Shown here piece by piece: positions 41,687 to 53,579 of a stretch of DNA of 57,649 nt (positions within the stretch are counted from its first letter, which is position 1; each line of letters begins with the position of its first letter). The notes below the pieces were generated by a model. The model was not told the DNA's origin, ran no database searches, and saw only the letters and a program-made list of their open reading frames with translations. The stretch is from Patescibacteria group bacterium (lineage in GTDB: Bacteria > Patescibacteriota > Microgenomatia > Levybacterales > GWA1-39-11), in NCBI GenBank assembly GCA_035549315.1, contig DASZRC010000038.1, forward strand, positions 1 through 57,649, given 5' to 3'. A program made the position numbers and the translations under genes.

Positions 41687-41763
41687 GGGGGCGTAGCTCA
41701 GTTGGTTAGAGCGCCTCCCTGTCACGGAGGAGGTCGCGGGTTCGAGTCCCGTCGCTCCCGCCA
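41687..41763 (+). tRNA. tRNA-Asp (anticodon GTC), CCA encoded
   Basis: Hand-folded cloverleaf: acceptor GGGGGCG/CGCTCCC, anticodon arm CCTCC-CTGTCAC-GGAGG, T arm GCGGG-TTCGAGT-CCCGT, 3' GCCA. Confidence 0.9.
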
Positions 41764-41820
41764 CATTCGTTTAGCATGGATGTGGCCCGCTACCCAATTG
41801 ATTTCCCCAAAAAGAACGTC

Positions 41821-41908: not shown

Positions 41909-42541
41909 ATGCCAAGAAAAAAGGTATCAGTTAAAAAATCGAGTAAAAAAGAGGTAGTCTTAAAAAGAAACGTCTCTACTTCTCCCATAGCAAAATCTTA
42001 CATAAGTCTTCTTTATGGTGTTTTATCAGTCGTAATACTTTTTGTAATTATATTTTTAGGTCTTAAGGCATTATCGGCTAGACCAAATCCTCAAATTTCA
42101 GATCAGGCGGCAAACACAGAAGCAAAAGTTACTTACACCGTAAAAACGGGTGATAGTTTGTGGACAATTGCCCAAGATCAGCTTAAGGATGGATACCAAT
42201 GGACAAGAATTGCAGAGGCGAATAAGATTTCTGACCCAAATATTATAGAAAAGGGTATGGTTCTCACAATGCCAGCCATAGAAACTCCAACCGTATCTCC
42301 TACCGTGTCTCCAAAGCCAACCACGGTTCCAACAGCACCTATAGCTATGCAGTCAGCACCAAACTCAGCCGGCTCAAAAATAACAGGGTCTAGTTACACT
42401 GTTGTAAGGGGAGACAATCTTTGGGATATAGCAGTAAGAGCATATGGAGACGGATACAAATGGACAGAAATTGCCAAAGCAAATAACCTTGCAAACCCTA
42501 GAATAATCCATTCAGGTAACAAATTCATATTACCTCGTTAG
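41909..42541 (+). CDS. membrane-anchored protein with two LysM peptidoglycan-binding domains
   Basis: 210 aa, TM anchor. Two LysM repeats (YTVKTGDSLWTIAQ...MVLTMP and YTVVRGDNLWDIAV...NKFILP) separated by a Pro/Thr linker. Confidence 0.85.
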   Translation: MPRKKVSVKKSSKKEVVLKRNVSTSPIAKSYISLLYGVLSVVILFVIIFLGLKALSARPNPQISDQAANTEAKVTYTVKTGDSLWTIAQDQLKDGYQWTRIAEANKISDPNIIEKGMVLTMPAIETPTVSPTVSPKPTTVPTAPIAMQSAPNSAGSKITGSSYTVVRGDNLWDIAVRAYGDGYKWTEIAKANNLANPRIIHSGNKFILPR

Positions 42542-42610
42542 TTGTTTTAATTTCCCTAAGATTATAAAATAGCCATTATTGCGTTTGTACTATAAAGTGT
42601 AGGCGCTGAA

Positions 42611-42645
42611 GCGGGCGTAGTTCACCGGTAGAATGTCTCCTTCCC
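42611..42645 (+). repeat. orphan copy of the 5' half of tRNA-Gly(CCC): acceptor, D arm, anticodon stem and loop through the anticodon
   Basis: The 35 nt gcgggcgtagttcaccggtagaatgtctccttccc are identical to 42995-43029. Identity stops right after the third anticodon base. Confidence 0.9.
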
Positions 42646-42994
42646 CCACCAAAAGTTCGCTTTGCTCTCAATTTGGCGGACCCGCCAGAATGCTTCAGCT
42701 TTCGGCGGGCAAGGTGTATTATGAAAGCATGTATTATACTTATGTTCTTTTATGTAGTAGTGTAAAAGATGGTAGGCATGAATTTTATACTGGTTTTTCT
42801 GCAAATTTACCTGAAAGAGAAATAGATTACAAGACTAAAAGTGTTAAAACAACTAAGAAATTTGATAAAATCGAACTCGTATATTTTGAAGCTTGCCTTA
42901 ATAAAGTCGATGCAATGAAAAGAGAGAAACAATTGAAAACAGGATTTGGTAGAGGCTATATTAAGAGAAGATTGGAAAGTTATATAAATACGTT
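42646..42994 (+). mobile_element. GIY-YIG mini-cassette (349 bp) bracketed by the duplicated tRNA-Gly 5' half
   Basis: This interval between the two 35-nt copies holds a GC-rich hairpin (CCCGCC 42681-42686 / GGCGGG 42704-42709) and a single GIY-YIG ORF. No other gene is present. Confidence 0.6.
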
Positions 42995-43004
42995 GCGGGC
43001 GTAG
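42729..43004 (+). CDS. small GIY-YIG nuclease-family protein
   Basis: 91 aa from ATG 42729: MYYTYVLL...EFYTGFS...REKQLKTGFGRGYIKRRL. The listed ORF 42633..43004 is an N-terminal over-extension into the tRNA fragment. AAGGTG lies upstream. The stop TAG (43002-43004) lies inside the tRNA-Gly gene. Confidence 0.75.
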   Translation: MYYTYVLLCSSVKDGRHEFYTGFSANLPEREIDYKTKSVKTTKKFDKIELVYFEACLNKVDAMKREKQLKTGFGRGYIKRRLESYINTLRA

Positions 43005-43066
43005 TTCACCGGTAGAATGTCTCCTTCCCAAGGAGAAGGCAGTGGGTCCGATTCCCATCGCCCGCT
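42995..43066 (+). tRNA. tRNA-Gly (anticodon CCC), CCA not encoded
   Basis: Hand-folded: acceptor GCGGGCG/CGCCCGC, anticodon arm TCTCC-TTCCCAA-GGAGA, T arm GTGGG-TCCGATT-CCCAT, discriminator T. Confidence 0.85.
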
Positions 43067-43067
43067 C

Positions 43068-43517
43068 ATGAAGAATAATTCCAAAATAAGTTTATTAGAC
43101 AGAGTCTGGAGCTTAAAAGCTGTTATTCTTTCATTTGGAATTGCGTTAGGTATAATGCTTTTCGTTGGCATATTTTGGACCAGCGTTAAATACGAGAATT
43201 ACGACAAAACTCACCACTTTTACTTGAATAGAGGATTATTTGGAACATGGGCGGGTGAGGGTTCACCTAATACTAAAGTTTATTTTCCTTTTGTTAAAGT
43301 ACCGTTTGTTGAAACTATTGAGCCGCTCGGAAATAATAAAATTGCAAAAATAATAGATGTTTCTATATTTGTTCCAGATCTTTTAGTGATTATGCTAATA
43401 TGCTATCCTCTTGCATTAGCAATTGTTCGTAGTTTAGACAAGAAATACAACTTTTTCTATTTAATAATATTTGTATTGGATTGCTGGTTATATTTTAGTT
43501 GGTTTCCCAGAGTTTAA
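43068..43517 (+). CDS. small membrane protein, unknown function
   Basis: The listed ORF starts at 43017 inside the tRNA. In-frame ATG 43068 (MKNNSKISLL...) lies 2 nt after the tRNA. Three or four hydrophobic helices. Confidence 0.55.
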   Translation: MKNNSKISLLDRVWSLKAVILSFGIALGIMLFVGIFWTSVKYENYDKTHHFYLNRGLFGTWAGEGSPNTKVYFPFVKVPFVETIEPLGNNKIAKIIDVSIFVPDLLVIMLICYPLALAIVRSLDKKYNFFYLIIFVLDCWLYFSWFPRV

Positions 43518-43560
43518 AATTAACAATTGACTCAATTAGAGCATTTTGATAATATAAATC

Positions 43561-45231
43561 GTGCCGCTCAAGAATTCTTCAAAACATAAAACAAAATACA
43601 TTTTTGTCTCCGGGGGAGTCATTTCAGGCATCGGAAAAGGTATTACGGCCGCCTCAATAGCATTACTTCTAAAAGCCAGGGGTCTTAGGGTTGCTCCATT
43701 AAAGTTTGAAAATTATCTCAATTTAGACGCAGGCACAATTAATCCCATAGAGCATGGAGATCCATTTCTGTGTGAAGACGGTACAGAGGGCGATATGGAC
43801 ATTGGGTCTTATGAAAAATTCTTAGACGAGGATATGGGACGCGACAACTTTGTCACTATGGGGAGGATTTACCAAACCGTAATAGATAGAGAAAGGCGCT
43901 TTGAATATAACGGAGAAGACGTTGAGGCAATACCTCATATAACAGATGAAATTATTTCAAGAATTACTACTCTTGCCAAAAAAAGTGACGCAGATGTTGT
44001 TTTGGTAGAACTTGGAGGAACAGCAGGGGAATATCAAAATGTATTTTATTATGAAGCTTCCCGTATTTTGACCCTTAAGAATCCAGGAGATGTTGTGCAT
44101 ATTCACGTAAGTTATGTTCCAACGCCAAGCCATTTGGGAGAACCTAAAACCAAACCAACTCAACTATCTGTAAGAACTCTCAACTCTATGGGAATTCAGC
44201 CTGACTTTATAGTTGCAAGAAGTGAAAAATATCTTGACCAAAGAAGGCGCGACCGTTTTGCACTCTTTTGCAATATGGAAGGGGAAGCTATTATTTCCAA
44301 TCCGGATGTGGAAACAGTATATGAAATTCCATTGGTGCTTCATAAACAAGAGTTGGATAAAAAAATCCTCACTAAATTAGGCTTGAAAATAGAGAAATCA
44401 AATCTTTCTGCCTGGGAAGAATTGGTAAGAAAGATTAAAGCTCCAAAGAAAAAGACAATAAATATTGCAATCATTGGTAAATATTTTGGTACGGGGGAAT
44501 ACCAGATAAGAGATTCTTATGCGGCCCTTTTTGATGCAATAGATCATGCTTCATGGTTTAACGGGTTAGAAGTTAAAACCCATTGGATTGATGCTGAAAA
44601 GCTTGAAAAGACAGACGCTAAAGAGCTTATAGGTAAGCCTGATGGTATTATAGTTCCAATTGGATGGGGTTTGAGAGGGGCTGAGGGTATGATAAAGGCA
44701 GCTTCCTATGCCAGAGAAAATAAAATTCCATATTTAGGATTATGTTACGGAATGCAGTTGGCGGCCATTGCCTTTGCTCGAGACGTTTTGGGTTTTAAAG
44801 ATGCAAATACTACAGAAAATGATCCTGATTCAAAACATCCGGTGATACATATCATAGAAGCTCAAAAAGAACATATGAAAAATAGGGCATACGGCGGAAC
44901 AATGAGGCTCGGTGGTTGGGAGGCAATAGTTAAAAAGGGAACAAGAGCTTTTGATTTTTACTCAAAATATGGGGATATTGATAAAAAAACCGGATTAACT
45001 TCAGAAAGGCACAGGCACAGATTTGAGTTTAATAACAAGTTTGCAGAGGATTTTGAGAGGAAGGGGCTTATAATTAGCGCCAGATCTGTTAAGGAAAGTC
45101 TAGTTGAGATACTCGAGTTACCGGCTTCCGCCCACCCCTTTTATATGGGTACTCAAGGCCATCCGGAATATAAAAGCAGACCTCTTAAGCCACATCCTTT
45201 CTTTATTGAGTTCCTCAAAGCTTGTGCATAA
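43561..45231 (+). CDS. pyrG: CTP synthase
   Basis: 556 aa. KYIFVSGGVISGIGKGITAAS, plus the GATase domain (GLCYGMQ, HRHRFEFN). GTG start. Confidence 0.97.
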   Translation: MPLKNSSKHKTKYIFVSGGVISGIGKGITAASIALLLKARGLRVAPLKFENYLNLDAGTINPIEHGDPFLCEDGTEGDMDIGSYEKFLDEDMGRDNFVTMGRIYQTVIDRERRFEYNGEDVEAIPHITDEIISRITTLAKKSDADVVLVELGGTAGEYQNVFYYEASRILTLKNPGDVVHIHVSYVPTPSHLGEPKTKPTQLSVRTLNSMGIQPDFIVARSEKYLDQRRRDRFALFCNMEGEAIISNPDVETVYEIPLVLHKQELDKKILTKLGLKIEKSNLSAWEELVRKIKAPKKKTINIAIIGKYFGTGEYQIRDSYAALFDAIDHASWFNGLEVKTHWIDAEKLEKTDAKELIGKPDGIIVPIGWGLRGAEGMIKAASYARENKIPYLGLCYGMQLAAIAFARDVLGFKDANTTENDPDSKHPVIHIIEAQKEHMKNRAYGGTMRLGGWEAIVKKGTRAFDFYSKYGDIDKKTGLTSERHRHRFEFNNKFAEDFERKGLIISARSVKESLVEILELPASAHPFYMGTQGHPEYKSRPLKPHPFFIEFLKACA

Positions 45232-45242
45232 ATATGCTAGCC

Positions 45243-45271
45243 TTGAAAGATTAGCTTAGCTTTAGTATAAT
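45243..45271 (+). promoter_or_regulatory. sigma70-like promoter of rplS (leaderless geometry)
   Basis: TTGAAA (45243-45248), 17-nt spacer, TATAAT (45266-45271). The ATG at 45280 is 8 nt downstream. Confidence 0.55.
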
Positions 45272-45279
45272 AATGACCT

Positions 45280-45558
45280 ATGGATATTGTAGATACACTT
45301 CGTGAAGGCCAAACAGTAAAAGTCTTCCAAAAAATTGTTGACGGTAAAAGGGAAAGAATAGTTCCTTTTGTGGGAAAACTAATGAAAGTTAGAGGAGAGG
45401 GTGTAAATAAAACCATCACCGTTAAACAAAACTTAGAGGGCGTAGACGTAGAAAAAATCTTTCCGGTTGTTTCACCAACAATAACAAAAATAGAAATCGT
45501 TATAGTAGCTGAAAAGAAAAGAAAATCTAAAAAATCTTCAAAAGGCAAAAGAAAATAA
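45280..45558 (+). CDS. rplS: 50S ribosomal protein L19 (short form with Lys-rich tail)
   Basis: 92 aa. LREGQTVKVFQKIVDGKRERIVPFVGKLMKVRGEGVNKTITVKQ...GVDVEKIFPVVSP aligns by eye with E. coli L19 [36 protein letters not shown]...GVERVFQTHSP. Confidence 0.8.
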   Translation: MDIVDTLREGQTVKVFQKIVDGKRERIVPFVGKLMKVRGEGVNKTITVKQNLEGVDVEKIFPVVSPTITKIEIVIVAEKKRKSKKSSKGKRK

Positions 45559-45667
45559 TTTCTCTAGCACTTCCTTAACTTCTTTCATTTCTCTTACACC
45601 TATCTTGTTGCTTTATCAAAGTGCTTAGCTATTATTTTATCAATGATAGCAAAGGAGGTGATAAAGA

Positions 45668-45802
45668 ATGGCTAGAAAACAAAGTAAAGGTCGCGGATGG
45701 CACGGTGACTCACAAGGACACGCAGCTGCCGGAAGGAAGGGCGGACTTGCTAGCAGGAGAGGCAAGCAGGGCTCAAATGAAAATCAACAGCAAGCACTAT
45801 AA
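45668..45802 (+). CDS. 44-aa basic KGG-motif (general-stress-like) protein
   Basis: Strong SD AAGGAGGTG 6-7 nt upstream of ATG 45668. Translation: MARKQSKGRGWHGDSQGHAAAGRKGGLASRRGKQGSNENQQQAL. It replaces the listed 45621..45818 ORF, which is in a different frame. A terminator follows. Confidence 0.65.
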   Translation: MARKQSKGRGWHGDSQGHAAAGRKGGLASRRGKQGSNENQQQAL

Positions 45803-45816
45803 TTTTTTGGTGAGGT

Positions 45817-45844
45817 AAAAGCAGGTGTAAGTTTGCCTGCTTTT
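45817..45844 (+). terminator. rho-independent terminator after the KGG gene
   Basis: AAAAGCAGG (45817-45825), 10-nt loop, CCTGCTTTT (45836-45844). Confidence 0.6.
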
Positions 45845-45873
45845 ACTGTAACATTTTAGCCTCACCGAATTGC

Positions 45874-45902
45874 TTGACGATTTTTCAGGCTTTAGATAGT
45901 AT
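45874..45902 (+). promoter_or_regulatory. sigma70-like promoter of the 45942 gene
   Basis: TTGACG (45874-45879), 17-nt spacer, TAGTAT (45897-45902). The palindrome TACGTAA-gtt-TTACGTA (45909-45925) follows. Confidence 0.45.
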
Positions 45903-45941
45903 TAGAAATACGTAAGTTTTACGTAAATATAGATATTATCT

Positions 45942-46439
45942 ATGCCCGATTTATTTGCGCTTAACTCAAACACTTTTCATTTGGGATCTTACTCTCTAAC
46001 AGTATCAAAGGGTCTATATGCTACAAAAATAAGAATGAATTGTTTGACTCCTGTAGTAAACACCAAGCAACTACCAAAGTCTTTTAAAATCCTTTCCCAA
46101 GAACTTCCGTCTATATTTAAATCCAAATGTTTTAATGATCAAGATTATCCATTTATGGAAGAAGCCAAGAGAACAGAGTTGGGGCACCTATTTGAACACA
46201 TAATGCTTGAATACATATGTATGGGTAAAATGGAAAAAGGTCTTAGACGAGTATCTGTTTCTGGGGTTACGGATTGGAATTGGAGGGTAGACCCTTATGG
46301 TACCTATAACATTACATTAAGAGTTGGGAAAATAGACCAGACGGTAATTGACGAAGCACTTAAAAAAACAATTCTACTATTTGATTCAATATTAGATACA
46401 AGATATTTACATACGAAAAAACAGATAGCGTCTTCATAA
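45942..46439 (+). CDS. hypothetical protein
   Basis: 165-aa ORF with its own promoter. It contains GHLFEHIML (an HxxEH-like string), but I recognise no family. Confidence 0.55.
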   Translation: MPDLFALNSNTFHLGSYSLTVSKGLYATKIRMNCLTPVVNTKQLPKSFKILSQELPSIFKSKCFNDQDYPFMEEAKRTELGHLFEHIMLEYICMGKMEKGLRRVSVSGVTDWNWRVDPYGTYNITLRVGKIDQTVIDEALKKTILLFDSILDTRYLHTKKQIASS

Positions 46440-46461
46440 CCATCTGTTTTTCCGTCTACTC

Positions 46462-46596
46462 TTATTCGTCTTGTTCGCTCATGTCAGTATCTATGTCTGA
46501 GTCTTCAAACTCCTGAGTTGTTTGTCCTCCTTTTGTTCCGGATTCGTCCTCCTCCGTTGTAAGGTTTTGGTCTTTGTTCATGTCATCCTGTGCCAT
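46462..46596 (-). CDS. 44-aa highly acidic small protein with one KGG motif
   Basis: Not in the ORF track (<60 aa). SD GGAGGTG 7 nt upstream of ATG 46596. Hand translation: MAQDDMNKDQNLTTEEDESGTKGGQTTQEFEDSDIDTDMSEQDE, stop TAA at 46464-46462. Confidence 0.5.
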   Translation of the reverse strand: MAQDDMNKDQNLTTEEDESGTKGGQTTQEFEDSDIDTDMSEQDE

Positions 46597-46731
46597 ATTC
46601 TATTCACCTCCTTCCTTAGAAATTATTGTTAGCTTTTGGGTTCTTGAGTATTTAAATGCCTTCATAAGCACCATATTAGATTGCTGGAATTATAATGCAA
46701 CAAGAAGCATGTAAGAAAAGCAAAAGAAGGG

Positions 46732-48288
46732 TTATCTAAACTTTAGTCCGGGGTCAGAATCCGTATTATATGGAATTTTAGTTTCTTCATTTGTTAGTTT
46801 GTATTTTTCAATTTTGTATCCATTTGGGAAGTTAATTGTGAGCACTGGCTTTGAAGATATTTTGATTTGATTCTTTGTCCACCATGCATCTCCTGTGATG
46901 TATTTATTAACAGGCGTTGGGGCAATCAGAAGATACGTAATTGGTTTCTTTGTAAAATAGGAACCGTTATGGTGGGTTTCTGCTGCATAAATCATGGCAT
47001 ATCTTCCTTCATATGCAAAAGAGTCCGGTGAATACACAAAATAACCAATATCTTTATCATTCCTTGCATAGATTTTATCCGTTGCTTCTTTTAAGAATTT
47101 CCAAGAGTGAGTGTCTTTTCCAATTATGTTTACAGAATCTTTCATATCTCTAATCCCGTTTGAAATATTGACCAAAAGTATCATACACAAGGGGATAATA
47201 AGATATTTTTCATATTTAGAATTAAGAAATGAAGAGATAATCAGAAACACCAATGGGAATAGGGGGAAGATGTAGAAGTAAAGAATAGGGCCTTTGTCTA
47301 TAAAACTTGTTATAAAAAACCCAAAGTAAAAATACAAAAAGTAAATATAAATATCTTTGTTTTTCCCTGCCCTAATTTGTAAATAAATTAGGAATAAGAC
47401 TGATAGAAAAAGGATAACATTAAGATATCCATATGCATCATGACGGAGAATCTCTGTTCCGTTAAATGCCATATCTATCCTGTTTTTAACTAGAGAAGTG
47501 TAATTGTAAATTTGGCCCTGGTCTTGTGGAGAAACAAAAGATGCAACCTTTTTAGCTAGTAAAAAGTCATGTCTAACATCAAATAACACAAAATTAGTAA
47601 ACATTAGGGGAATAAGTAAAAAGAAAAGAAGATGTTTTTTATTTCCTTTTTTAATTATAGAAACTACTATCCATAACGTAGAGAGAATTATAAATGGTAT
47701 GCCTAATGCTAGTTGAAATTGAAGAATAATTGCTTCAGTTACTAAAACAAAAACTAAAAATTTCCACTTTCTTGTTCGCATGTATTTTATAAAAAAGTAG
47801 AAGAAGGCGGGAATAAAAAACATAGCCCCATGTGGATTAAACAGCCCCATGGTATGGTAGCCCATGTAAACCGCCGTAAACATGGCAAAGAAAAGGCCCG
47901 AGAGCCGTCCAAAGAGTTCTTTGCCTATAAAATAGCATGAGACTACAAATAATCCGGAGAGGAGTACCCAGTACCATCCAACAACTATTGGGTTACCATG
48001 GCCAATTATATATGCGGGCCAGTCAACATAAGTCCACAAGGGTCCATGGAATAATCCAGTACTAGACCTAGGACCAATTAGAACAATTTTCTTTTCATTA
48101 ACTTCCCTGAGTAAATGAAAGTCTCGTGCAATATCTGCAGAAAAGGTTATGTCACCATGGGCTACGTACCAAGAAGAAAAAATAAAACTAAAAACAAAAA
48201 CGGCAATAATACCTATTTTTTGTAATAAAGACATTAAAGAGATTATAGCATTTAAAAGAAGATTATTTGTGGTTCTTTGGCCAAGCAT
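46732..48288 (-). CDS. ArnT/PMT-like (GT39-like) polytopic membrane glycosyltransferase
   Basis: 518 aa multi-TM. The first loop is SADIARDFHLLREV...GPRSSTGLFHGPLWTY. ATG 48288 overlaps the DinB gene by 26 nt. The alternative ATG 48234 (MSLLQKIG) lies 7 nt after a TATAAT. Confidence 0.6.
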   Translation of the reverse strand: MLGQRTTNNLLLNAIISLMSLLQKIGIIAVFVFSFIFSSWYVAHGDITFSADIARDFHLLREVNEKKIVLIGPRSSTGLFHGPLWTYVDWPAYIIGHGNPIVVGWYWVLLSGLFVVSCYFIGKELFGRLSGLFFAMFTAVYMGYHTMGLFNPHGAMFFIPAFFYFFIKYMRTRKWKFLVFVLVTEAIILQFQLALGIPFIILSTLWIVVSIIKKGNKKHLLFFLLIPLMFTNFVLFDVRHDFLLAKKVASFVSPQDQGQIYNYTSLVKNRIDMAFNGTEILRHDAYGYLNVILFLSVLFLIYLQIRAGKNKDIYIYFLYFYFGFFITSFIDKGPILYFYIFPLFPLVFLIISSFLNSKYEKYLIIPLCMILLVNISNGIRDMKDSVNIIGKDTHSWKFLKEATDKIYARNDKDIGYFVYSPDSFAYEGRYAMIYAAETHHNGSYFTKKPITYLLIAPTPVNKYITGDAWWTKNQIKISSKPVLTINFPNGYKIEKYKLTNEETKIPYNTDSDPGLKFR

Positions 48289-48751
48289 TCATAACTTGGC
48301 GCATGATTGCAAATTCTCCCAAGTGATAAGCATTGTGGTCTGTAATAACAGCTGCTTCTCTGGCCAAAGTTTGTCCATCTCCCCATGGAAATACTTTGTA
48401 AATATCAACTGTTTGGTCTTCTATTATCTTTTTTAGTCTTTCTCTATCTTCTAGAAAATCTTTTATAGTTTTGTTCCAATCTTCTTTTGTAGCTTTTGCA
48501 TCCTTTTTTGGCCAATAATCATCTGGCCACTTAAGGTCTTTGTAATCGGGGTTAATTGAAAAATTTATAATATCTGCTTGGGTTCTTCTCATATGCTCTA
48601 ACAAGTGCCAAAAAGTGTAGTCTCCGTTAGTAAACACATCATTCATATGTTCTTCCGGAAAATCCGCAACTGCGTCTTCATATGACATATGAGCGTGTCC
48701 GCGCATAAGGTGAAAGACTAACTCGTCTCGTGTTTTTTTATCGTTATCCAT
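48263..48751 (-). CDS. DinB-family (DinB_2-like) four-helix metalloprotein
   Basis: 162 aa. Has the His triad context (FWHLLEHM..., ITDHNAYHLGE). Confidence 0.65.
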   Translation of the reverse strand: MDNDKKTRDELVFHLMRGHAHMSYEDAVADFPEEHMNDVFTNGDYTFWHLLEHMRRTQADIINFSINPDYKDLKWPDDYWPKKDAKATKEDWNKTIKDFLEDRERLKKIIEDQTVDIYKVFPWGDGQTLAREAAVITDHNAYHLGEFAIMRQVMNAWPKNHK

Positions 48752-48814
48752 TAATATATTCTACACCCAAATAAACACATTAATAAACAACCTATAACAT
48801 GATATACTTTGCAA

Positions 48815-49111
48815 ATGAGCGAGCGTTGTGTGTTGGTTGAATTCTGTGTGGGCCCAAACTGTGGCCGAGATGGTAAGAAATACCATCAAGATTTTAAAGA
48901 TGCAATAGACAATACTAAGGACCTTGAGGGTCTGACAGTTACTGCTAGGGGCTGCAAAAATGAATGTGCTACATCTGCCAATATGGCTCTTACAGTAAAC
49001 AACGGAGATCCGGTTAAATTTAAATATCTTGGGGATAAGAGTAGAGGATTGCCGGTTGAACAATTAATAACTACCATCAAGCAAAATCTTCTCCCTCCAA
49101 CAGAACAGTAG
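48815..49111 (+). CDS. thioredoxin-like [2Fe-2S] ferredoxin-domain protein
   Basis: Cys pattern CVGPNC ... CKNEC (CX4C ... CX3C). ATG 48815 is preferred to the listed TTG 48809. Confidence 0.6.
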   Translation: MSERCVLVEFCVGPNCGRDGKKYHQDFKDAIDNTKDLEGLTVTARGCKNECATSANMALTVNNGDPVKFKYLGDKSRGLPVEQLITTIKQNLLPPTEQ

Positions 49112-49124
49112 TTTCTTTTAAAAG

Positions 49125-49176
49125 AAAACATCTCGCAAACGCTTGATGTGAACATCGAGTTTTAACGAGATGTTTT
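49125..49176. terminator. long hairpin between convergent genes (putative bidirectional terminator)
   Basis: AAAACATCTCG (49125-49135) pairs with CGAGATGTTTT (49166-49176). A nested imperfect hairpin CTTGATG/CATCGAG sits in the loop. Confidence 0.5.
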
Positions 49177-49181
49177 ACAAT

Positions 49182-49850
49182 CTAAAGCTTTTTTGAAAGC
49201 TTTGTTAAGATCTCTCTGGCTGCTTCTTTACCTCCAAGACCAAAAGCTAGTCCTCCGGCTAAAGCTACCATTGCAACTACTCCTGCAAAAAGAATTCTTA
49301 TTAGATCGCTTGCTATACCGAGTTGGTTAAGGGCAATTAGAACAGCAAATACAATTACAGAATATCTTCCGATAACAGCAATTGTTCTTGCGGATTCTTT
49401 TGATACCCCACTAACTGATGCTAGTAAAAGATCGTGAACCAATTTTGCTACAACAAATCCAACCAAAAGTAAAAGTACTGCTACTATTACATTTGGTAAG
49501 AATGCTAAGAAATTGTTGAGAATTACAACAAACTGTCCTAATCCCCAAATGTCTGATGTTGGTATTAAAAATAAAATAATAATAAACCAACGTGCTAGCT
49601 CTGCTAGGAAAGTTGTCCATGAAACCCCCTCTTTACCACGTGTTTCCGGAACTCCATATCTTTCCAGCATGTCCTCCAGTCTTACAAATCTAAAAACCTG
49701 AATAAGGATCTGCCTTACTAAAGACGCAATAATCAAGCCAATAAGTAAGACGATAAGACCTGTGAGGAAACGGGGTACAAACAGTGCGACCGTAGCTATG
49801 GTGTCATTAAGAGTTGCCGTAAATACTTCATTTACGTTTTCAAACTGCAT
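49182..49850 (-). CDS. membrane protein with repeated TM-helix modules (MscS-N-terminal-like)
   Basis: 222 aa, 4-5 TM helices, two similar halves. SD GGAGGTG upstream. Confidence 0.6.
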   Translation of the reverse strand: MQFENVNEVFTATLNDTIATVALFVPRFLTGLIVLLIGLIIASLVRQILIQVFRFVRLEDMLERYGVPETRGKEGVSWTTFLAELARWFIIILFLIPTSDIWGLGQFVVILNNFLAFLPNVIVAVLLLLVGFVVAKLVHDLLLASVSGVSKESARTIAVIGRYSVIVFAVLIALNQLGIASDLIRILFAGVVAMVALAGGLAFGLGGKEAAREILTKLSKKL

Positions 49851-49994
49851 AAAATTTCACCTCCAATCATCTAAAAGATTACAAACTAACCCAAAAGTAC
49901 CACAAAAAATCTTGACATGTCAATACTTTTTGATATCTTAGCCTCGTCCTTGTTGCTTTGCAGGCCAAGGTTCTGGTAAAATTTACTGTTCGGG

Positions 49995-50066
49995 CGGGCC
50001 GATAGCTCAATGGTAGAGCAAAAGCCTTTTAAGCTTTTGGTTCTGGGTTCGAATCCCAGTCGGCTC
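49995..50066 (+). tRNA. tRNA-Lys (anticodon TTT), CCA not encoded
   Basis: Hand-folded: acceptor GGGCCGA/TCGGCTC, anticodon arm AAAGC-CTTTTAA-GCTTT, T arm CTGGG-TTCGAAT-CCCAG. Confidence 0.9.
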
Positions 50067-50091
50067 ACATCTTATATATATCATGATTTTT

Positions 50092-50165
50092 GGCGCCATC
50101 GTCTAGTGGCCTAGGACACAGGGCTTTCATCCCTGTAATCATGGGTTCGAATCCCATTGGCGTCA
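50092..50165 (+). tRNA. tRNA-Glu (anticodon TTC), CCA not encoded
   Basis: Hand-folded: acceptor GGCGCCA/TGGCGTC, anticodon arm CAGGG-CTTTCAT-CCCTG, T arm ATGGG-TTCGAAT-CCCAT. Confidence 0.9.
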
Positions 50166-50166
50166 C

Positions 50167-50506
50167 TAACCTTCGCTAAAGCTACGGTTAGCAAGCAATG
50201 TATTATACGTACGTTCTTAGGAATAATAAAACGAATCGTTATTACATAGGCTATACTCCTGATTTGAAAAACCGGCTGATGAAACACAAGTCGGGAAAAG
50301 TCTTATCTACTAAATCAAATTTAAACTACGAACTGGAATGGTATTGTGCTTTCAAAACAAAGGGTCAGGCATTATCTTTCGAACAATACTTAAAAACAGG
50401 TTCTGGTGTAGCATTTATGAAAAAAAGGTTTTTCAAATCTGAAGCTTTTGCGAAGTTAGAATCAATGGGAAGTCCTGCTACTCGTAGCTCAAAGAGCGAA
50501 GTGTAG
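50167..50506 (+). mobile_element. GIY-YIG mini-cassette (340 bp) bracketed by a duplicated tRNA-Glu 3' end
   Basis: This interval lies between the two copies of tcccattggcgtcac (50152-50166 and 50507-50521). It holds a hairpin (CTAACC 50166-50171 / GGTTAG 50186-50191) and one GIY-YIG ORF. Confidence 0.6.
50198..50506 (+). CDS. small GIY-YIG nuclease-family protein
   Basis: 102 aa. MYYTYVLRNNKTNRYYIGYTPDLKNRLMKHKSG...FEQYLKTGSGVAFMKKRF, with GIY...YIG, the conserved Arg and Glu. The stop TAG abuts the second tRNA-derived repeat. Confidence 0.85.
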   Translation: MYYTYVLRNNKTNRYYIGYTPDLKNRLMKHKSGKVLSTKSNLNYELEWYCAFKTKGQALSFEQYLKTGSGVAFMKKRFFKSEAFAKLESMGSPATRSSKSEV

Positions 50507-50521
50507 TCCCATTGGCGTCAC
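50507..50521 (+). repeat. orphan copy of the 3' end of tRNA-Glu (last T-loop base, T-stem 3' strand, acceptor 3' strand, discriminator, +1 nt)
   Basis: tcccattggcgtcac is identical to 50152-50166. Confidence 0.85.
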
Positions 50522-50642
50522 CTAAAGGAATGCTCAGGCATGGGGTTCGAACCTTTTGAACGTGAATTGTTTGTAAGATTTCTTCATCAGTATTTTCATC
50601 TTTAATTACCACCCTCATTTTGGTTCGATATTCCATTAGGGT
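50520..50642 (-). repeat. ~123-nt repeat, copy A, containing a 46-codon ORF (50478..50618, minus)
   Basis: Matches 52237-52358. The plus-strand block acctaaaggaatgctca...cgtgaa has 42/47 identical positions. The block cctcatt(t)tggttcRatattccattagggt differs by 1 indel and 1 mismatch. Minus-strand ORF: MRVVIKDENTDEEILQTIHVQKVRTPCLSIPLGDANGTTLRSLSYE. Confidence 0.6.
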
Positions 50643-50649
50643 TCTGAAT

Positions 50650-52116
50650 TTACAGAGCATTTGCAGCTTTAAATTCTGCAGCAGCCAAATATGCAGTTAA
50701 TTTTGGTCTATATAGGTGATTAAATTGTTCATTATCTTTAAAGTTATCAATTGCGCTCCTTGCCAAATCTAAATAACCATTGTCACACAATTCATGAATT
50801 GCGATTGTTAAGATTTGCATTTTCCCATCATCTATAAATTCGGCCCAATCATATTTATCCATAGGAAATTCCATAACTTTTTTAACAGCAAATCTGTAGG
50901 CTTCTGTTGCATCAAAACCTGCTGCATCAAGCGCTTTCGCAATAGTTAAGGATCCTGTCATCGGATCAGTCTCCGACATGGGAACACCGAAAATTGTCCA
51001 TCTATTCTCCTCGCTTGCCGCGTTCCAAGCTTTCTTAAAATGATCATTGGCACTATTAAAATCTCCTGATTTTTGCGATGCTTCAGCCAAATCTGCATGA
51101 ATAGAAATAAAATCTATTAATCCAACAGTTTTTTTGTCATCGTCACTTCTCGCACCAATATTCAATTCTGATAACTCATCATCTATTTCTTGAAATGGTC
51201 TATGTTGTTGTGCATTTATTACGGCTTGTCTCGCACGAGCTCTATAGTAGATTGTTCCACCAACTTCTTTAGTAACTTGCACAGCATCGTCTGCTAGGCC
51301 TCTTGAAAGTTGCTCTTGTGCTATATCATTGACCGTATACCAATAGTAGTGTGAATTATCTTCTCTGAAAACTTCAGCTATGTCTAAAGCTTTAGCAAAA
51401 AGTCCAGCCTTAGTATATGCCTGCATCAATCTATAATACATTCCTTCAAAACCAAACAATACAATTCTATTCAATGCTTCACTACGAGAAATAGCTGTAT
51501 TTTTACCTTGAGATATTTGAAAATTGTATTCATCAGAAAATTGCATTCTTTGAACAGCTAACGTATTTTCTGCTTTTGTAAATAAACCCAAGGCTTCTTC
51601 ATCTTTTCCAGCATCTGCAAACACACTTCCAATATTGATATCTTGCCATGTGTTTCTAGCTAGATCTTTTCGTCCATACGCATCAAGATGTTGAATATTT
51701 GAAAGATGCCTGACTTTCTGAAGTATTTCCGATTGGTCTTGCCCTCTTTGCCTTTGCAACCAGAGTAAATAAGCATAATCGTTTAAAGGATCTTTTACTT
51801 GGGGCAAAATTCGACCTACAACCTCATCATTACCCAACACTGCGTTAACCCTTACCAATCCGCTCATTGATATTTGTCTTTCATCTTCATGAATGGAATT
51901 TTCTAATCTAAATTCAGCGCTACGCAAAAGAGGAACCGCTGAGAATCCGCTTGACTCCATCCTGTAAGCTGTTTCTACCAGATCTTGAATTTGAAAATTC
52001 GCACCCATATTATGAAAGAGAGATACTGCTTGTCTAAAATGTTGCTGAGAAAAATTTCTTTCTTGAGAAGAAACCACTTCGCTAGGATTTTTGAGTCGAT
52101 ATTCTATTTCTGCCAT
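50650..52116 (-). CDS. hypothetical cytoplasmic alpha-helical-repeat (TPR-like) protein
   Basis: 488-aa ORF, no signal peptide or TM helix. Helix-rich composition with repeated A/L/Y-rich segments. No family recognised. Confidence 0.6.
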   Translation of the reverse strand: MAEIEYRLKNPSEVVSSQERNFSQQHFRQAVSLFHNMGANFQIQDLVETAYRMESSGFSAVPLLRSAEFRLENSIHEDERQISMSGLVRVNAVLGNDEVVGRILPQVKDPLNDYAYLLWLQRQRGQDQSEILQKVRHLSNIQHLDAYGRKDLARNTWQDINIGSVFADAGKDEEALGLFTKAENTLAVQRMQFSDEYNFQISQGKNTAISRSEALNRIVLFGFEGMYYRLMQAYTKAGLFAKALDIAEVFREDNSHYYWYTVNDIAQEQLSRGLADDAVQVTKEVGGTIYYRARARQAVINAQQHRPFQEIDDELSELNIGARSDDDKKTVGLIDFISIHADLAEASQKSGDFNSANDHFKKAWNAASEENRWTIFGVPMSETDPMTGSLTIAKALDAAGFDATEAYRFAVKKVMEFPMDKYDWAEFIDDGKMQILTIAIHELCDNGYLDLARSAIDNFKDNEQFNHLYRPKLTAYLAAAEFKAANAL

Positions 52117-52155: not shown

Positions 52156-52236
52156 TTCTTCCTGATTTTCTTTGTACGCTTCAATTAACCTACCCTAGAA
52201 GATTAAGTGTGGTTCGAACTGTTCGCCCCTAGGGTT

Positions 52237-52358
52237 ACCTAAAGGAATGCTCACGCATGGTGTTCGAACCACTTGAGCGTGAAAGTTGAGTAGATAATTT
52301 TTGTTTTCTTCTTCATGGTTAATCTCTAGCCTCATTTGGTTCAATATTCCATTAGGGT
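52237..52358 (-). repeat. ~122-nt repeat, copy B, containing a 46-codon ORF (52195..52335, minus)
   Basis: See copy A. Minus-strand ORF: MRLEINHEEENKNYLLNFHAQVVRTPCVSIPLGNPRGEQFEPHLIF. It has the same length as the copy A ORF and aligns without gaps. Confidence 0.6.
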
Positions 52359-52406
52359 AATAAACCGATAATTATTGATTTTCAATTTTAATACCTTCTT
52401 TCATTA

Positions 52407-53579
52407 TTATTTTGTGGATTTGTTTGTACGGAGCGGTGCAAACGTGAAAGTTTTAAGAATCTGACTAATAGTTGGGTCCGAATCTGGATTAGATACCGGA
52501 ATATTAATTGTAACTATTTTCTGGCTACTGCTTAAAACAATAATATATCCTCGTGAGCCTTCTCCTAGAGCAGGATATATCAGACCTGGATAACCGGCGA
52601 TAGCAACACCGTCATAAACACCGAACTGATTATGTACATCTTGATGCGCATAAGCAGGATTGTTTACAGTTTGTCTATTTATATATTCATCTGTTGTCTC
52701 TGTTGAATTTATTGTGTTGAAATAAACATACTTTGTAGGTAGCTGTATATCTTTCTCCCCATTTACTGTAAAACTTTTTCCAACAGTCTGAATAGAAGTA
52801 GGATCGTAGAATTGTTCTGCGCTATCCGATTTTTGTATAGTCCATGAATTTGGATAATAGATTGAAAAACCATCACCATTAAATTTTTTCCAATTTGCCC
52901 AGGTTGAATCGTAGCTTGAGGTATCCGCTGTTTTTTTGTCTGTAAATTTAAAATTTGAAATCACTGTTTTTTGGAAGGAGGATATTGATCCGTCCGAGTT
53001 TGAATTAAATTCTATTTCGTATGTATAATTATTTTTATTTGTTACAAAATCCAAATAATAAAAGACCATATTTGGAGCGTAACAAGCCATTTGGCACGGG
53101 TGCGAAGAGAGAAAAACGTTCCACCTTTGATTATTATAGGTAATTGTTCCCAACGGTTTTCCCAATTCTACCTCAATTTTCTGTAGATTAGTTAGGAGAA
53201 CCCTAACATAAATTTCTTTGTTCGAAGAATCTACAACAGTCATAAAGTCTTGCGCCGGGTCTGGGTATGTAATTGATCCCCCCGCGACATTTGGTGGATA
53301 CTTAAACTCGTAATTATATTTATCACTAAAATACGTCTTCCAATTCGAAGTATCTATGATGGGAGAAATTGAATTTCCTAATTTAGGAGGGAATATTCTT
53401 GGAATGAAAAACCATCCTGCAAATACCGATATTGGAACGATCAATAAGATAAGCGGGATCTTCACGAGTAATGGGAGTTTAAATTTTGGTTTTGCTTTCA
53501 AAGTTTCTGGAACAACGATAGTTTCTTCAGGAATTGAATTTTCAATTTGTGTTTGAATTTTAATATCATCATTATCCAT
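52407..53579 (-). CDS. membrane-anchored extracytoplasmic protein with two similar beta-rich modules
   Basis: 390 aa. TM anchor (LLVKIPLILLIVPISVFAGWFFI). Repeated W-K-x-Y/F...Y-x-F-x-YP modules (NWKTYFSDKYNYEFKYPPN, NWKKFNGDGFSIYYPNSW). Confidence 0.65.
   Translation of the reverse strand: MDNDDIKIQTQIENSIPEETIVVPETLKAKPKFKLPLLVKIPLILLIVPISVFAGWFFIPRIFPPKLGNSISPIIDTSNWKTYFSDKYNYEFKYPPNVAGGSITYPDPAQDFMTVVDSSNKEIYVRVLLTNLQKIEVELGKPLGTITYNNQRWNVFLSSHPCQMACYAPNMVFYYLDFVTNKNNYTYEIEFNSNSDGSISSFQKTVISNFKFTDKKTADTSSYDSTWANWKKFNGDGFSIYYPNSWTIQKSDSAEQFYDPTSIQTVGKSFTVNGEKDIQLPTKYVYFNTINSTETTDEYINRQTVNNPAYAHQDVHNQFGVYDGVAIAGYPGLIYPALGEGSRGYIIVLSSSQKIVTINIPVSNPDSDPTISQILKTFTFAPLRTNKSTK

Follow-up and report, generated by a model that had tools for sequence, protein, structure and literature searches.

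A 340-bp insert carrying a minimal GIY-YIG nuclease gene behind tRNA-Glu in a Patescibacteria genome, bounded by terminal hairpins and a second copy of the tRNA 3' end

When a genomic island or prophage integrates into the 3' end of a tRNA gene, the insert comes to lie between direct repeats of that end, from the T-loop onwards, and the tRNA remains intact. In IS200/IS605 and REP/RAYT systems, the terminal hairpins are read by their structure; IS200/IS605 also uses a short guide, located 5' of the hairpin, which base-pairs with the cleavage or the target site. The enzyme of these systems is an HUH/Y1 transposase, insertion leaves no target duplication, and neither hairpin is an inverted copy of the other. 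Seg proteins, about twice the length of the protein described here, have a DNA-binding domain; to our knowledge, Seg genes have neither hairpin termini nor a target duplication. One of them, SegB of T4, is a selfish GIY-YIG nuclease encoded in a tRNA gene cluster that spreads by cutting DNA without it (PMC2330249).

Fungal mORFs (Allomyces atp6; Glomus atp6, atp9, cox2, and nad3) are endonuclease ORFs at the 3' end of an essential gene; the end of the host gene is duplicated, a complete copy is kept, the native fragment is displaced downstream, and the mORF is co-transcribed with the host gene (PMC3630166). Bacterial Slx1-like/UPF0213 proteins are stand-alone minimal GIY-YIG domains with no auxiliary domain (PMC1564403). 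Proteins of the UPF0213 type are described as repair-type small nucleases of unknown role in a phylogenomic study of GIY-YIG proteins, a survey of Caulobacter repair genes, and a review (PMC1564403, PMC1839093, PMC7017083); for UPF0213, the three sources mention neither tRNA adjacency, terminal hairpins, tRNA-end duplication, nor mobility. A literature search on GIY-YIG, UPF0213, or YhbQ together with tRNA or Patescibacteria found no description of an element such as the one reported below.

The window is the whole stretch of DNA that was analysed, 57,649 nucleotides from a Patescibacteria group bacterium. The features around its tRNA-Glu gene are as follows.

49912..49939, + strand: sigma-70-like promoter match (TTGACA, 16-nt spacer, TATCTT; 10/12 matches), upstream of tRNA-Lys
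49996..50068, + strand: tRNA-Lys(TTT), 76.5 bits; upstream neighbour, unoccupied here
50092..50166, + strand: tRNA-Glu(TTC), target gene, intact (ARAGORN 50092-50166; Rfam 50092-50165, 63.4 bits)
50152..50166, + strand: direct repeat copy 1, within the functional tRNA-Glu, TCCCATTGGCGTCAC
50198..50506, + strand: ORF of 102 aa, minimal GIY-YIG nuclease domain at about residues 1-80; only gene of the insert
50507..50521, + strand: second copy of the direct repeat, exact TCCCATTGGCGTCAC; a tRNA-Glu 3' end, either displaced or duplicated
50522..50642, + strand: native downstream flank of tRNA-Glu, homologous to the sequence directly 3' of tRNA-Glu in related locus L163

The tRNA-Glu, the 340-bp insert, and the exact 15-nt second copy, as given in a preliminary description of this DNA, were confirmed by ARAGORN, Rfam, and a repeat count; TCCCATTGGCGTCAC has exactly two occurrences (50152-50166 and 50507-50521), against a chance expectation of about 0.01 matches with 2 mismatches allowed. 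The ORF stop codon does abut the repeat (TAG at 50504-50506, duplicate from 50507), the hairpin reported behind the tRNA is real, and the 15-mer has the anatomy ascribed to it (last T-loop base, 3' T-stem strand, 3' acceptor strand, and discriminator), with one further C included. The insert (50167-50506) starts directly after this C, which lies 3' of the discriminator and is itself part of the first pair of the left hairpin stem. No terminator-like site and, besides 49912-49939, no second promoter-like site was seen in 49800-50750. Within the element, there is no promoter or terminator match, so that its expression probably depends on transcripts that start at the tRNA-Lys/tRNA-Glu promoter and read through into it, 49912-49939 being the likely source as far as motif matches tell.

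The empty-site comparison proposed in the preliminary description was positive at three loci. In the closest relative found (L161), the tRNA-Glu is 100% identical and is followed by an immediate terminator, the cassette being absent and the neighbouring channel protein 91% identical. In L163, the tRNA-Glu 3' end is continuous with the homologue of window flank 50522-50642 (window 50507-50642 vs L163, 72.8% over 136 nt with the tRNA 3' end overlapped), so the 15-mer is single-copy there; L165 is also without the cassette. At the level of sequence comparison, 50167-50506 is shown to be a real insertion that is missing in close relatives. The two repeat copies in the window are identical, and its tRNA-Glu equals that of L161.

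Both ends of the insert, together with the sequence just inside the right end, contain the following features.

50166..50191, + strand: left terminal hairpin (X), stem CTAACC/GGTTAG, conserved 14-nt loop TTCGCTAAAGCTAC
50438..50460, + strand: inner X' copy (reverse-complement motif), tctGAAGCTTTTGCGAAGTtaga, which matches the minus-strand motif with 1 mismatch
50463..50470, + strand: CAATGGGA, the opening 8 nt of the downstream tRNA duplicate in inverted form, 7 nt 5' of the outer hairpin
50478..50506, + strand: right terminal hairpin (outer X'), stem CTAC/GTAG, loop containing AGCTCAAAGAGCGAAG; abuts the duplicate

The 14-nt loops of both end hairpins are conserved and mutually reverse-complementary. 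For the left stem, 98.4% of cells were paired across 63 loci, compensatory changes were present in 6/6 pairs, and 0/500 shuffles were equal to this; a covariance model (R1) scored the left hairpin at 41.7 bits, E 1e-10. The foot of the right hairpin is the final base of the insert (50506); in relatives, the right loop reads GAAGCYTTRGCGAA, the stems are locus-variable yet paired, and the duplicate directly adjoins. The copies in Bacteroidota have their hairpin loops in the opposite orientation. An imperfect inverted repeat had been proposed between 50168-50183 and 50443-50457. It exists but is incomplete, 50443-50457 being the inner arm only, which lies inside the annotated ORF directly past the GIY-YIG domain and belongs to the stretch tctGAAGCTTTTGCGAAGTtaga that codes for a conserved '(V)ALAKD'-type peptide; the true element termini are the hairpins at 50166-50191 and 50478-50506. 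Like MITEs and classical insertion sequences, the cassette is small, with terminal inverted repeats, a flanking target repeat, and solo or truncated derivatives; unlike them, it has no known transposase but a nuclease of its own that belongs to no transposase class, and its duplication is variable in length and set by tRNA-structure landmarks.

Right-end complementarity of at least 7 nt to the duplicate was present in 7/42 loci, vs 2.1% of wrong-tRNA-paired controls. In the window, this segment CAATGGGA may be a guide, a stem, or an insertion by-product. Three other readings of the right end were rejected: CAATGGGA as a same-strand copy of the tRNA T-stem 5' region; a duplicate that reaches further upstream, over the variable loop and the T-stem 5' strand, and is interrupted by the outer hairpin, for which same-strand similarity showed no excess over controls; and a T-arm or minihelix mimic formed by the tail and the duplicate together, for which no consistent acceptor-strand partner was found in the right ends inspected. 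Rfam at permissive E-values gave tRNAs only in 42400-50800, with no group I intron or other RNA family; in seven related loci, it gave no hairpin family, only tRNAs and an unrelated LOOT RNA.

The 102-aa protein has its family and size in common with UPF0213 (YhbQ, YazA, BH0048; COG2827). It matches Pfam PF01541 over residues 1-67 (E 1.6e-14, 54.3 bits vs a cut-off of 22.6), and precomputed Pfam annotation placed PF01541 on all 120 homologues among the matches listed. In an alignment of 24 sequences, Y3, Y5, Y16, G18, and E62 are invariant and R26 and H30 nearly so; by analogy, the conserved Tyr, Arg, and Glu residues would be of catalytic type. The sole GIY-YIG match in a PDB sequence search was 1zg2 (UPF0213 protein BH0048), E 1e-4. 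An AlphaFold2 model had a mean pLDDT of 78.5, with residues 82-98 below 50; Foldseek ranked 1zg2 and Slx1 entries (6seh, 7cq2, 4xm5) at 1-10, with probability 1.00 and modest E-values (2e-3 to 4e-2), ahead of I-TevI (rank 11) and UvrC (rank 16). The last 20 residues are disordered in the model, and their codons lie in the terminal hairpins, the ORF tail being a read-through across the right-end hairpins. From these matches and the model, the protein is a minimal Slx1/UPF0213-type GIY-YIG nuclease with predicted activity. It is under purifying selection (dN/dS about 0.10 at dS about 1.75). Only the GIY-YIG domain is present in the 102 aa, with no sequence-specific DNA-binding domain, and the insert, whose only ORF is this one, encodes no transposase of a known class (DDE, HUH, or serine/tyrosine recombinase) and no integrase. 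NCBIfam gave no informative family for either GIY-YIG protein of the window or for a neighbouring 488-aa ORF.

Related loci (160, from a genome collection and a metagenome collection) were surveyed for the same arrangement. The preliminary description had named two outcomes that would speak against it, homologues at unrelated non-tRNA positions and a repeat at chance frequency around tRNAs without a GIY-YIG gene. Neither was seen. What was found is an ORF at most 300 nt downstream of a same-strand tRNA in 48/77 cases of the genome collection (62%) and 46/65 of the metagenome collection (71%); after the ORF, 12 nt or more of the tRNA 3' terminus were repeated exactly at 43/86 GIY-YIG-followed tRNAs vs 4/55 control tRNAs in the same loci. 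The four control copies are tentatively attributed to a tandem element or a neighbouring tRNA-Ser. The tRNA-adjacent homologues involve 22 tRNA species, and no homologue has an opposite-strand tRNA only. Duplicates start in the T-loop or T-stem (about position 55-64), end at the discriminator or one base further, and are 10-21 nt long. About 40% of the tRNA-adjacent relatives are without an exact duplicate; this group consists mainly of non-Patescibacteria whose spacers measure 100-300 nt.

In the protein tree, elements found behind Lys, Glu, and Tyr tRNAs are intermingled, by which closely related elements are shown to occupy different tRNAs; the nearest relatives of the tRNA-Glu element target tRNA-Lys (protein identity about 80-90%). 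Locus L012 has two 100% identical copies in tandem with a duplicate after each, in keeping with repeat insertion or amplification, and truncated or solo remnants are present elsewhere. Differences between duplicate and tRNA in L099 and L109/L111 are confined to the acceptor part. In L086, L100, L110, L114, and L120, a tRNA 3' fragment is present on the right despite a non-tRNA left flank, which fits an element-carried fragment or a later rearrangement. The comparative data are largely metagenome assemblies, in which chimeras across repeats are possible; L081 is the same as L082 to about ORF nucleotide 100 and then has an L086-type right end and flank, so it is a recombinant or an assembly chimera, and was rejected as proof of a duplicate travelling with the element. 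Seg genes are phage-carried, whereas the cassette family has only 2 matches in 2.9 million viral contigs; a phage origin was rejected. Judged by its homologues, the cassette is a member of a widespread family of tRNA-seeking elements.

The window contains a second cassette, which the preliminary description had presented as the mirror image of the first.

42611..43067, + strand: mirror-type sister cassette at tRNA-Gly(CCC), with a 5'-half copy, a hairpin region, a GIY-YIG ORF, and the intact tRNA

This arrangement is real. An exact 35-nt repeat at 42611-42645 and 42995-43029 corresponds to tRNA-Gly positions 1-35, the intact tRNA lies downstream (42995-43067), and the GIY-YIG ORF (42729-43004) runs into its start. 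The view that one element type had hit both tRNAs holds as to kind; the elements themselves are different, with proteins only 34% identical. Duplications of the 5' end were also seen in L029 (24 nt) and L115 (18 nt), and are much rarer than those of the 3' end.

The reading we regard as probable, with appreciable doubt, is that 50167-50506 is a mobile mini-element that targets tRNA 3' ends, is inserted by its nuclease through staggered, structure-specific cleavage, and is transcribed from the tRNA promoter. We infer the nuclease activity, the cut sites, and the link between protein and mobility. The element's own nuclease would drive insertion, acting on DNA structure like Slx1; it would nick at the acceptor-stem foot and in the T-loop of a transiently extruded or single-stranded tRNA gene, and also at the feet of the element's own hairpins. 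Fill-in of the staggered cuts would give a 14-20-nt duplication of the tRNA 3' end; in the mirror type, the cuts would lie at the 5' end and in the D-loop or anticodon loop. We know of no transposase or ligase activity in a minimal GIY-YIG domain, so that joining would be left to host repair. The target tRNA survives insertion, and the same tRNA is therefore open to repeat insertion. On the other side of the ledger stand the fragments at non-tRNA sites, the relatives without a duplicate, the loop flip in Bacteroidota, and the chimera-prone assemblies; the variable duplication length (10-21 nt) is also against this reading, being unusual for a target-site duplication made by a transposase.

A further-reaching version is put forward tentatively, as one we would not expect to hold in full. 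The element would represent an unrecognised class of prokaryotic DNA transposon in which an Slx1-like GIY-YIG nuclease is the sole mobility protein, reading the shape of its own hairpins and of the cloverleaf of the tRNA gene, with the short segment complementary to the T-stem and the acceptor 3' strand of the tRNA as a guide or splint that places the right end on the target strand. The guide of IS200/IS605 resembles CAATGGGA in being complementary to the target; the tRNA-Glu element differs from IS200/IS605 in having no HUH protein and in having a duplication. If the guided version is true, few base changes would re-programme targeting between tRNAs.

Homing, as by the mORFs of fungal mitochondria, is unlikely as an alternative to nuclease-driven insertion into tRNA 3' ends. 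The unit would consist of a replacement tRNA 3' end plus hairpin, ORF, and hairpin; the nuclease would break both strands of an unoccupied tRNA gene in its T-loop, repair would copy the unit from the occupied allele, with the tRNA body as left arm and the 15-20-nt duplicate as right arm, and the downstream copy would be the displaced native 3' end instead of a fill-in product. Precedent exists in the endonuclease mORFs of atp6, atp9, cox2, and nad3, which carry a foreign C-terminal copy (PMC3630166). The start of the duplicates in the T-loop, the most conserved stretch among tRNA genes, agrees with such a break, as do the acceptor-part mismatches of L099 and L109/L111 with what two alleles would give and the tRNA 3' fragments retained by elements at non-tRNA sites. 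In that same source, mORFs differ in having protein-coding hosts, a carried copy that is foreign and much longer, and an ORF often fused in frame (PMC3630166). Their hosts and duplicates contrast with the bacterial chromosomal tRNA gene here and with family duplicates of 10-21 nt that match the local tRNA; terminal hairpins, present in the tRNA-Glu element, go unreported for mORFs in the text available (PMC3630166). With a free-standing homing endonuclease gene, the cassette shares presence/absence polymorphism but not the DNA-binding domain. Near relatives stand behind different tRNAs with every duplicate matching the local one, whereas a donor from another tRNA species would leave a chimeric, non-functional tRNA; the one clear mismatch case is L081, with its recombinant or chimeric structure. 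The intact tRNA persists with its T-loop, so the occupied allele would not be immune to re-cutting, and the conserved terminal hairpins are left unexplained.

Campbell-type integration of a small circle is improbable. The circle would carry hairpin, ORF, hairpin, and a tRNA 3' fragment, the repeats would be the attL and attR cores, and host recombination or a trans-acting recombinase would act through the 15-20-bp identity between repeat and tRNA. The geometry is that of tRNA-integrating islands and prophages, with a direct repeat from the T-loop of the tRNA 3' end at both borders; the fragment remains with elements at non-tRNA sites, and the perfect tandem dimer of L012 would be expected from a multimeric circle or unequal exchange. 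Those islands and prophages measure kilobases and encode a tyrosine or serine integrase, in contrast to a 340-bp insert with a nuclease only. No integrase is found in the cassette and no adjoining recombinase in the few contexts with genes that were inspected; a circle of 355-460 bp would be very small, the frequent switching between tRNA species is hard to explain, and the conserved nuclease is left without a role.

Marginally less credible again is a resident, not actively mobile gene with a cellular role tied to tRNA genes or tRNA, co-transcribed with the tRNA, whose hairpins and tRNA fragment are selected because they act in the RNA on processing, stability, or the control of translation. 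Such a gene would suit the strong purifying selection on the protein, a location on the tRNA's own strand that is open to read-through and lacks a separate promoter match, and duplicates that are exact despite element divergence to dS about 1.75; at the RNA level, the two hairpin loops could pair with each other, in the flipped Bacteroidota arrangement as well. COG4123 is taken here to be a tRNA methyltransferase family. Fusions of bacterial Slx1-like proteins to COG4123 and to the tRNA methyltransferase TrmH have been described (PMC1564403). A resident gene is hard to reconcile with close relatives that differ in its presence although their tRNA is identical, the occurrence of two cassettes within 57 kb, tandem, truncated, and solo copies elsewhere, the many different tRNAs occupied, and hairpin feet that coincide exactly with the insertion boundaries; moreover, the fold of the whole cassette RNA is barely better than that of shuffled sequence (z -1.76). 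A chance repeat or an assembly artefact, for which the chimeras that metagenome repeats can yield (L081) might be cited, is effectively refuted by the recurrence of the architecture in dozens of independent assemblies from different projects, the repeat expectation of 0.01, and the control rate of 4/55.

If the reading as a nuclease-driven, tRNA-targeting mini-element is correct, a large share of the small genes annotated as 'GIY-YIG nuclease family protein' in Patescibacteria, Bacteroidota, Verrucomicrobiota, Alphaproteobacteria, and other phyla would be cargo of tRNA-seeking selfish elements and not repair genes. The bacterial Slx1-like proteins (UPF0213/YhbQ) would gain a first concrete biological context, with tRNA-gene DNA and a defined hairpin as a substrate that can be put to the test. 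Partial tRNA duplications and tRNA-adjacent assembly breaks in uncultured bacteria would be explained, and a very small autonomous element (about 340 bp) would join known mobile DNA, its safe-harbour strategy leaving an essential gene unharmed. A minimal nuclease that recognises DNA structure, perhaps aided by a short complementary guide, would be of potential interest as a tool. A covariance-model search of the window for further terminal hairpins gave one weak solo candidate, at 37837-37865.

An intact tRNA-Glu(TTC) gene, a 340-bp segment, a 15-nt repeat, a GIY-YIG ORF and a stop codon abutting the repeat had been listed in the preliminary description, and every one of these elements was confirmed (ARAGORN and Rfam calls, repeat search, Pfam). 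Features of this cassette, and of a sister cassette of the mirror type (duplicating the tRNA 5' end), are as follows.

42611-43067, tRNA-Gly(CCC) cassette of the mirror type: 35-nt 5' copy, GIY-YIG ORF and intact tRNA-Gly
50092-50166, plus strand, intact tRNA-Glu(TTC)
50166-50191, left terminal hairpin of the tRNA-Glu cassette
50438-50460, inner copy of the reverse-complement hairpin motif, just past the nuclease domain, coding for a conserved 'ALAKD'-like peptide
50478-50506, right terminal (outer) hairpin, loop expanded

tRNA-Glu(TTC) follows tRNA-Lys(TTT) after a gap of 23 nt. The 57.6-kb window has two, and only two, exact copies of the 15-mer TCCCATTGGCGTCAC (50152-50166 and 50507-50521; chance expectation for a match ~0.01, two mismatches permitted). 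The 340 nt separating the copies hold a single ORF (50198-50506); its 102-aa product clearly matches Pfam GIY-YIG (E 1.6e-14), and its stop codon directly adjoins the second copy.

Related genomes, which are Patescibacteria and most likely Levybacteria, were found through a channel-like protein of 222 aa encoded in the neighbourhood (49182-49850, minus strand). The comparison locus L161, whose neighbour protein is 91% identical, retains tRNA-Lys and tRNA-Glu as a pair, the latter identical base for base; a hairpin and T-run lie directly 3' of tRNA-Glu, and the cassette is absent. In L163 (neighbour protein 81% identical) the tRNA-Glu 3' end joins sequence homologous to window positions 50522-50642, and the 15-mer is present as a single copy to which both window copies align; the cassette is likewise absent from L165. 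Relative to these three loci the tRNA-Glu cassette is an insertion, the window having 355 additional bases, that is, the element and one copy of the 15-mer.

Close homologues of the 102-aa protein number in the hundreds in Patescibacteria (65–90% identity). A species-level genome collection and a set of metagenomes supplied 80 loci each, yielding 77 and 65 distinct ORFs, respectively, with sufficient upstream sequence. A same-strand tRNA ends at most 300 nt upstream of 48/77 and 46/65 of these, so the homologues do not sit at unrelated, non-tRNA positions; ORFs with an opposite-strand tRNA alone number zero in both collections, and 22 tRNA species are occupied. Such genomes carry about 45 tRNA genes per megabase, from which the chance rate of such an upstream tRNA is estimated at well under 2%. 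Of the 86 tRNAs with a homologous ORF at most 150 nt downstream, 43 have 12 nt or more of their own 3' terminus repeated exactly 150–700 nt downstream, compared with only 4 of 55 control tRNAs lacking such an ORF in the same sequences, the four being tentatively attributed to an element in tandem or to an adjacent tRNA-Ser; the repeat near GIY-YIG-linked tRNAs, as first proposed, thus exceeds chance frequency. The first base of a duplicate falls in the T-loop or the 3' T-stem strand (GAATCC..., AATCC..., CC...), the last at the discriminator or one base past it. Beyond Patescibacteria and some Bacteroidota, tRNA adjacency is kept (Verrucomicrobiota, Alphaproteobacteria, Acidobacteriota, others); spacers in these copies are longer and exact duplicates mostly lacking.

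Comparison of loci showed that the left end is always of type CTATCTTTCGCTAAAGCTACAGATAG, followed by GCAAGC. Its hairpin consists of a 6-bp stem and a conserved 14-nt loop, the first pair being formed by the C 3' of the tRNA discriminator. Among 63 distinct loci, 98.4% of stem cells are paired, with compensatory changes in 6/6 pairs; none of 500 shuffles was as good, and shifting the partner by one column reduced pairing to 31–42%. The hairpin at the right end has a loop, GAAGCYTTRGCGAA, that is reverse-complementary to the loop of the left end; the stems vary by locus yet stay paired (CTCTAC/GTAGAG, CCTAC/GTAGG, TATCC/GGATA, others), and the final base of the hairpin adjoins the duplicate. 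An inverted repeat bracketing the ORF had been noted earlier: its second arm exists, as the inner copy, whereas the right end of the element is formed by the outer hairpin. The C-terminal tail of the protein, ATRSSKSEV, is read-through over this outer hairpin; it recurs in relatives sharing that hairpin variant and is disordered in the AlphaFold2 model. No Rfam family matched the terminal hairpins. Since no promoter-like or terminator-like sites were found inside the cassette, and the sole promoter match near the locus lies upstream of tRNA-Lys, the cassette is likely expressed by read-through from the tRNA operon.

Seven nt 5' of the outer hairpin, CAATGGGA (50463-50470) is perfectly reverse-complementary to the eight bases with which the duplicate opens, TCCCATTG (50507-50514); a stem enclosing the outer hairpin can therefore form. 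At the equivalent position, three other loci carry their own tRNA-specific pairs (GGCTGGGAT/ATCCCAGCC in L082, GGGTGGGA/TCCCACCC in L087, GGCGGGAT/ATCCCGCC in L100), and an inverted copy of the first 6–9 nt of the duplicate is present in the right end of the window element, of these three, and of L083, L094 and L138. The complementary segment is regarded as real. Complementarity of at least 7 nt occurs in 7/42 loci versus 2.1% of wrong-tRNA-paired controls, and most loci have a short segment or none. Its role may be that of a guide or splint or of a stem kept by selection, or it may have arisen as a side effect of insertion. An origin as a same-strand duplicate of the tRNA variable-loop/T-stem region was rejected, same-strand similarity being no greater than in controls.

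The tRNA-Gly case previously described is equally real. A second GIY-YIG ORF (42729-43004) is preceded by an exact 35-nt copy of tRNA positions 1–35 (42611-42645) and extends into the intact tRNA-Gly (42995-43067), so that its final codons overlap the tRNA start; of two hairpins 5' of the ORF, one has a loop, TTCGCTTTGCTCTC, resembling X, the left-end hairpin type. The tRNA-Glu and tRNA-Gly cassette proteins share only 34% identity; the cassettes represent one type of element without being copies of each other. Further 5'-end duplications were found at a tRNA-Ser (L029, 24 nt) and a tRNA-Glu (L115, 18 nt).

By sequence and fold, the 102-aa protein belongs to the Slx1/UPF0213 branch of the GIY-YIG superfamily. 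It is assigned to the bacterial Slx1-like minimal group because the sole GIY-YIG match in a PDB sequence search was UPF0213 protein BH0048 (1zg2), and because 1zg2, followed by ten Slx1 chains, heads the structural matches of the AlphaFold2 model (mean pLDDT 78.5, core >85), with I-TevI and UvrC ranking lower. COG4123, like TrmH, is presumably a tRNA methyltransferase family. Members of the bacterial Slx1-like group are stand-alone domains in a 2006 phylogenomic study, which noted Slx1-like fusions with the tRNA methyltransferase TrmH and with COG4123 (PMC1564403). Branched DNA is the substrate of Slx1, a structure-specific nuclease (PMC7017083; titles of PDB entries 6seh and 7cq4). Among 40 distinct close relatives dN/dS is ~0.10 and dS ~1.75, values which show that selection maintains the protein and that the element lineages are old. 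Despite this dS, duplicates match each local tRNA exactly, so either insertion was recent or the duplicate is under selection. Elements with tRNA-Lys, tRNA-Glu and tRNA-Tyr as targets intermingle in a neighbour-joining tree of 78 residues, which is only indicative, and the Glu element of the window is nearest to tRNA-Lys elements.

The comparisons thus show a small insert precisely where a tRNA gene ends, with inverted-hairpin ends and a conserved nuclease gene, present in some relatives and absent from others; the same type recurs behind many tRNAs, with a duplicate matching the target. The original interpretation as a tRNA-targeting GIY-YIG cassette is supported and extended: we class it as a bacterial, tRNA-targeting, hairpin-ended endonuclease mini-element. 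Taken as a whole, a mobile element using its Slx1-like nuclease is the reading we favour, somewhat above an even chance; the mechanistic details are less certain. The nuclease would cut DNA structures: the feet of the element's own hairpins and, in a tRNA gene with its strands folded back, the acceptor-stem foot and a loop. Staggered cuts and fill-in would then give the duplication. Such structure-directed cuts would explain why structural landmarks of the tRNA, and not a fixed length, set the limits of the duplicate, and, with fill-in, why the tRNA always survives; a nuclease reading structure could use any tRNA, and cuts at the 5' end and the D-loop or anticodon loop would produce the mirror type (tRNA-Gly, L029).

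The proposed mobile element would act most like fungal mitochondrial mORFs, which also duplicate the end of the host gene (PMC3630166), and like free-standing homing endonuclease genes, of which T4 segB is located in a tRNA cluster (PMC2330249). A rival reading, homing in which a replacement 3' end is carried along as in mORFs (PMC3630166), is unlikely and fits frequent target switching poorly; Campbell-type integration of a small circle via a tRNA fragment meets the same difficulty and is quite improbable. A resident tRNA-linked gene, with hairpins and duplicate as RNA signals, is about as improbable and fits the presence/absence pattern poorly. Phage homing enzymes have a DNA-binding domain, insertion sequences a known transposase, tRNA-integrating islands an integrase and IS200/IS605 an HUH enzyme, whereas the window element encodes none of these and, unlike IS200/IS605, shows a duplication. 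In the full-text literature searched, with most subscription journals outside coverage, tRNA adjacency, hairpin termini and tRNA-end duplication were not found described for these proteins. We regard a truly new transposon class, driven by a minimal GIY-YIG nuclease with structure- or guide-directed targeting, as a doubtful though conceivable designation.

Several loci bear traces of element activity or decay. Behind tRNA-Trp, L012 (2432-3350) carries two tandem element copies (457 nt, 100% identical), each followed by a tRNA 3' duplicate, then the native terminator; the arrangement is compatible with a second hit on the surviving target or with unequal exchange involving the repeats. A second or degenerate element lies 3' of the duplicate in L119, L137 and L001, and solo 24-nt hairpins of the element motif lie within a duplicated tRNA-Tyr fragment, directly after GAATCC (L095, 988-1012; L114, right end). 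In L086, L100, L110, L114 and L120 the left flank is non-tRNA, yet the right side retains a tRNA 3' fragment; the fragment may travel with the element, or flanks may have been swapped by recombination between copies. L081 shows that such recombination, or else chimeric assembly of a metagenome, does happen: it equals L082 for ~2100 nt (flank, tRNA-Lys, ORF to about nt 100), beyond which both right end and flank are of the L086 type. Bacteroidota loci L029 (2413-2817) and L062 (1068-1460) share the architecture (tRNA-Ser, ORF, 20-nt duplicate), with both hairpin loops reversed relative to Patescibacteria copies and the ORF and tRNA strand kept; in L029 a second GIY-YIG ORF, with the 5' duplicate, lies 5' of the same tRNA-Ser.

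A LOOT RNA (RF03000; L086 1299-1410, minus strand, 80 bits) lies ~550 nt upstream of the element and is probably unrelated. Elsewhere in the window, a solo hairpin with loop TTCGCTAAAGCTCA (37837-37865, plus strand; covariance model 14.6 bits, E 0.046) sits at the junction of minus-strand ORFs 36493-37878 and 37875-38777, being intergenic only if the true start of the first is near 37815; it possibly represents a leftover or a miniature form of the element. Right behind tRNA-Asp lies an 11-bp hairpin (41760-41786) whose 5' strand is formed by the encoded CCA end of that tRNA; its loop is not element-type.

The native tRNA-Glu flank occurs twice in the window (50522-50642 and 52207-52421). In front of the second copy (52231-52421), which is 76% identical to L163, stands a degenerate tRNA-Glu 3' end, gcccctagggtta (52219-52231), and the inverted repeat GTGTGGTTCGAAC/GTTCGAACCAC encloses the copy (DNA fold z -3.6). 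Between the flank copies lies an orphan ORF of 488 aa (50650-52116, minus strand) with zero matches in Pfam and NCBIfam; together with the duplicated flank it looks like a separate insertion or duplication beside tRNA-Glu.
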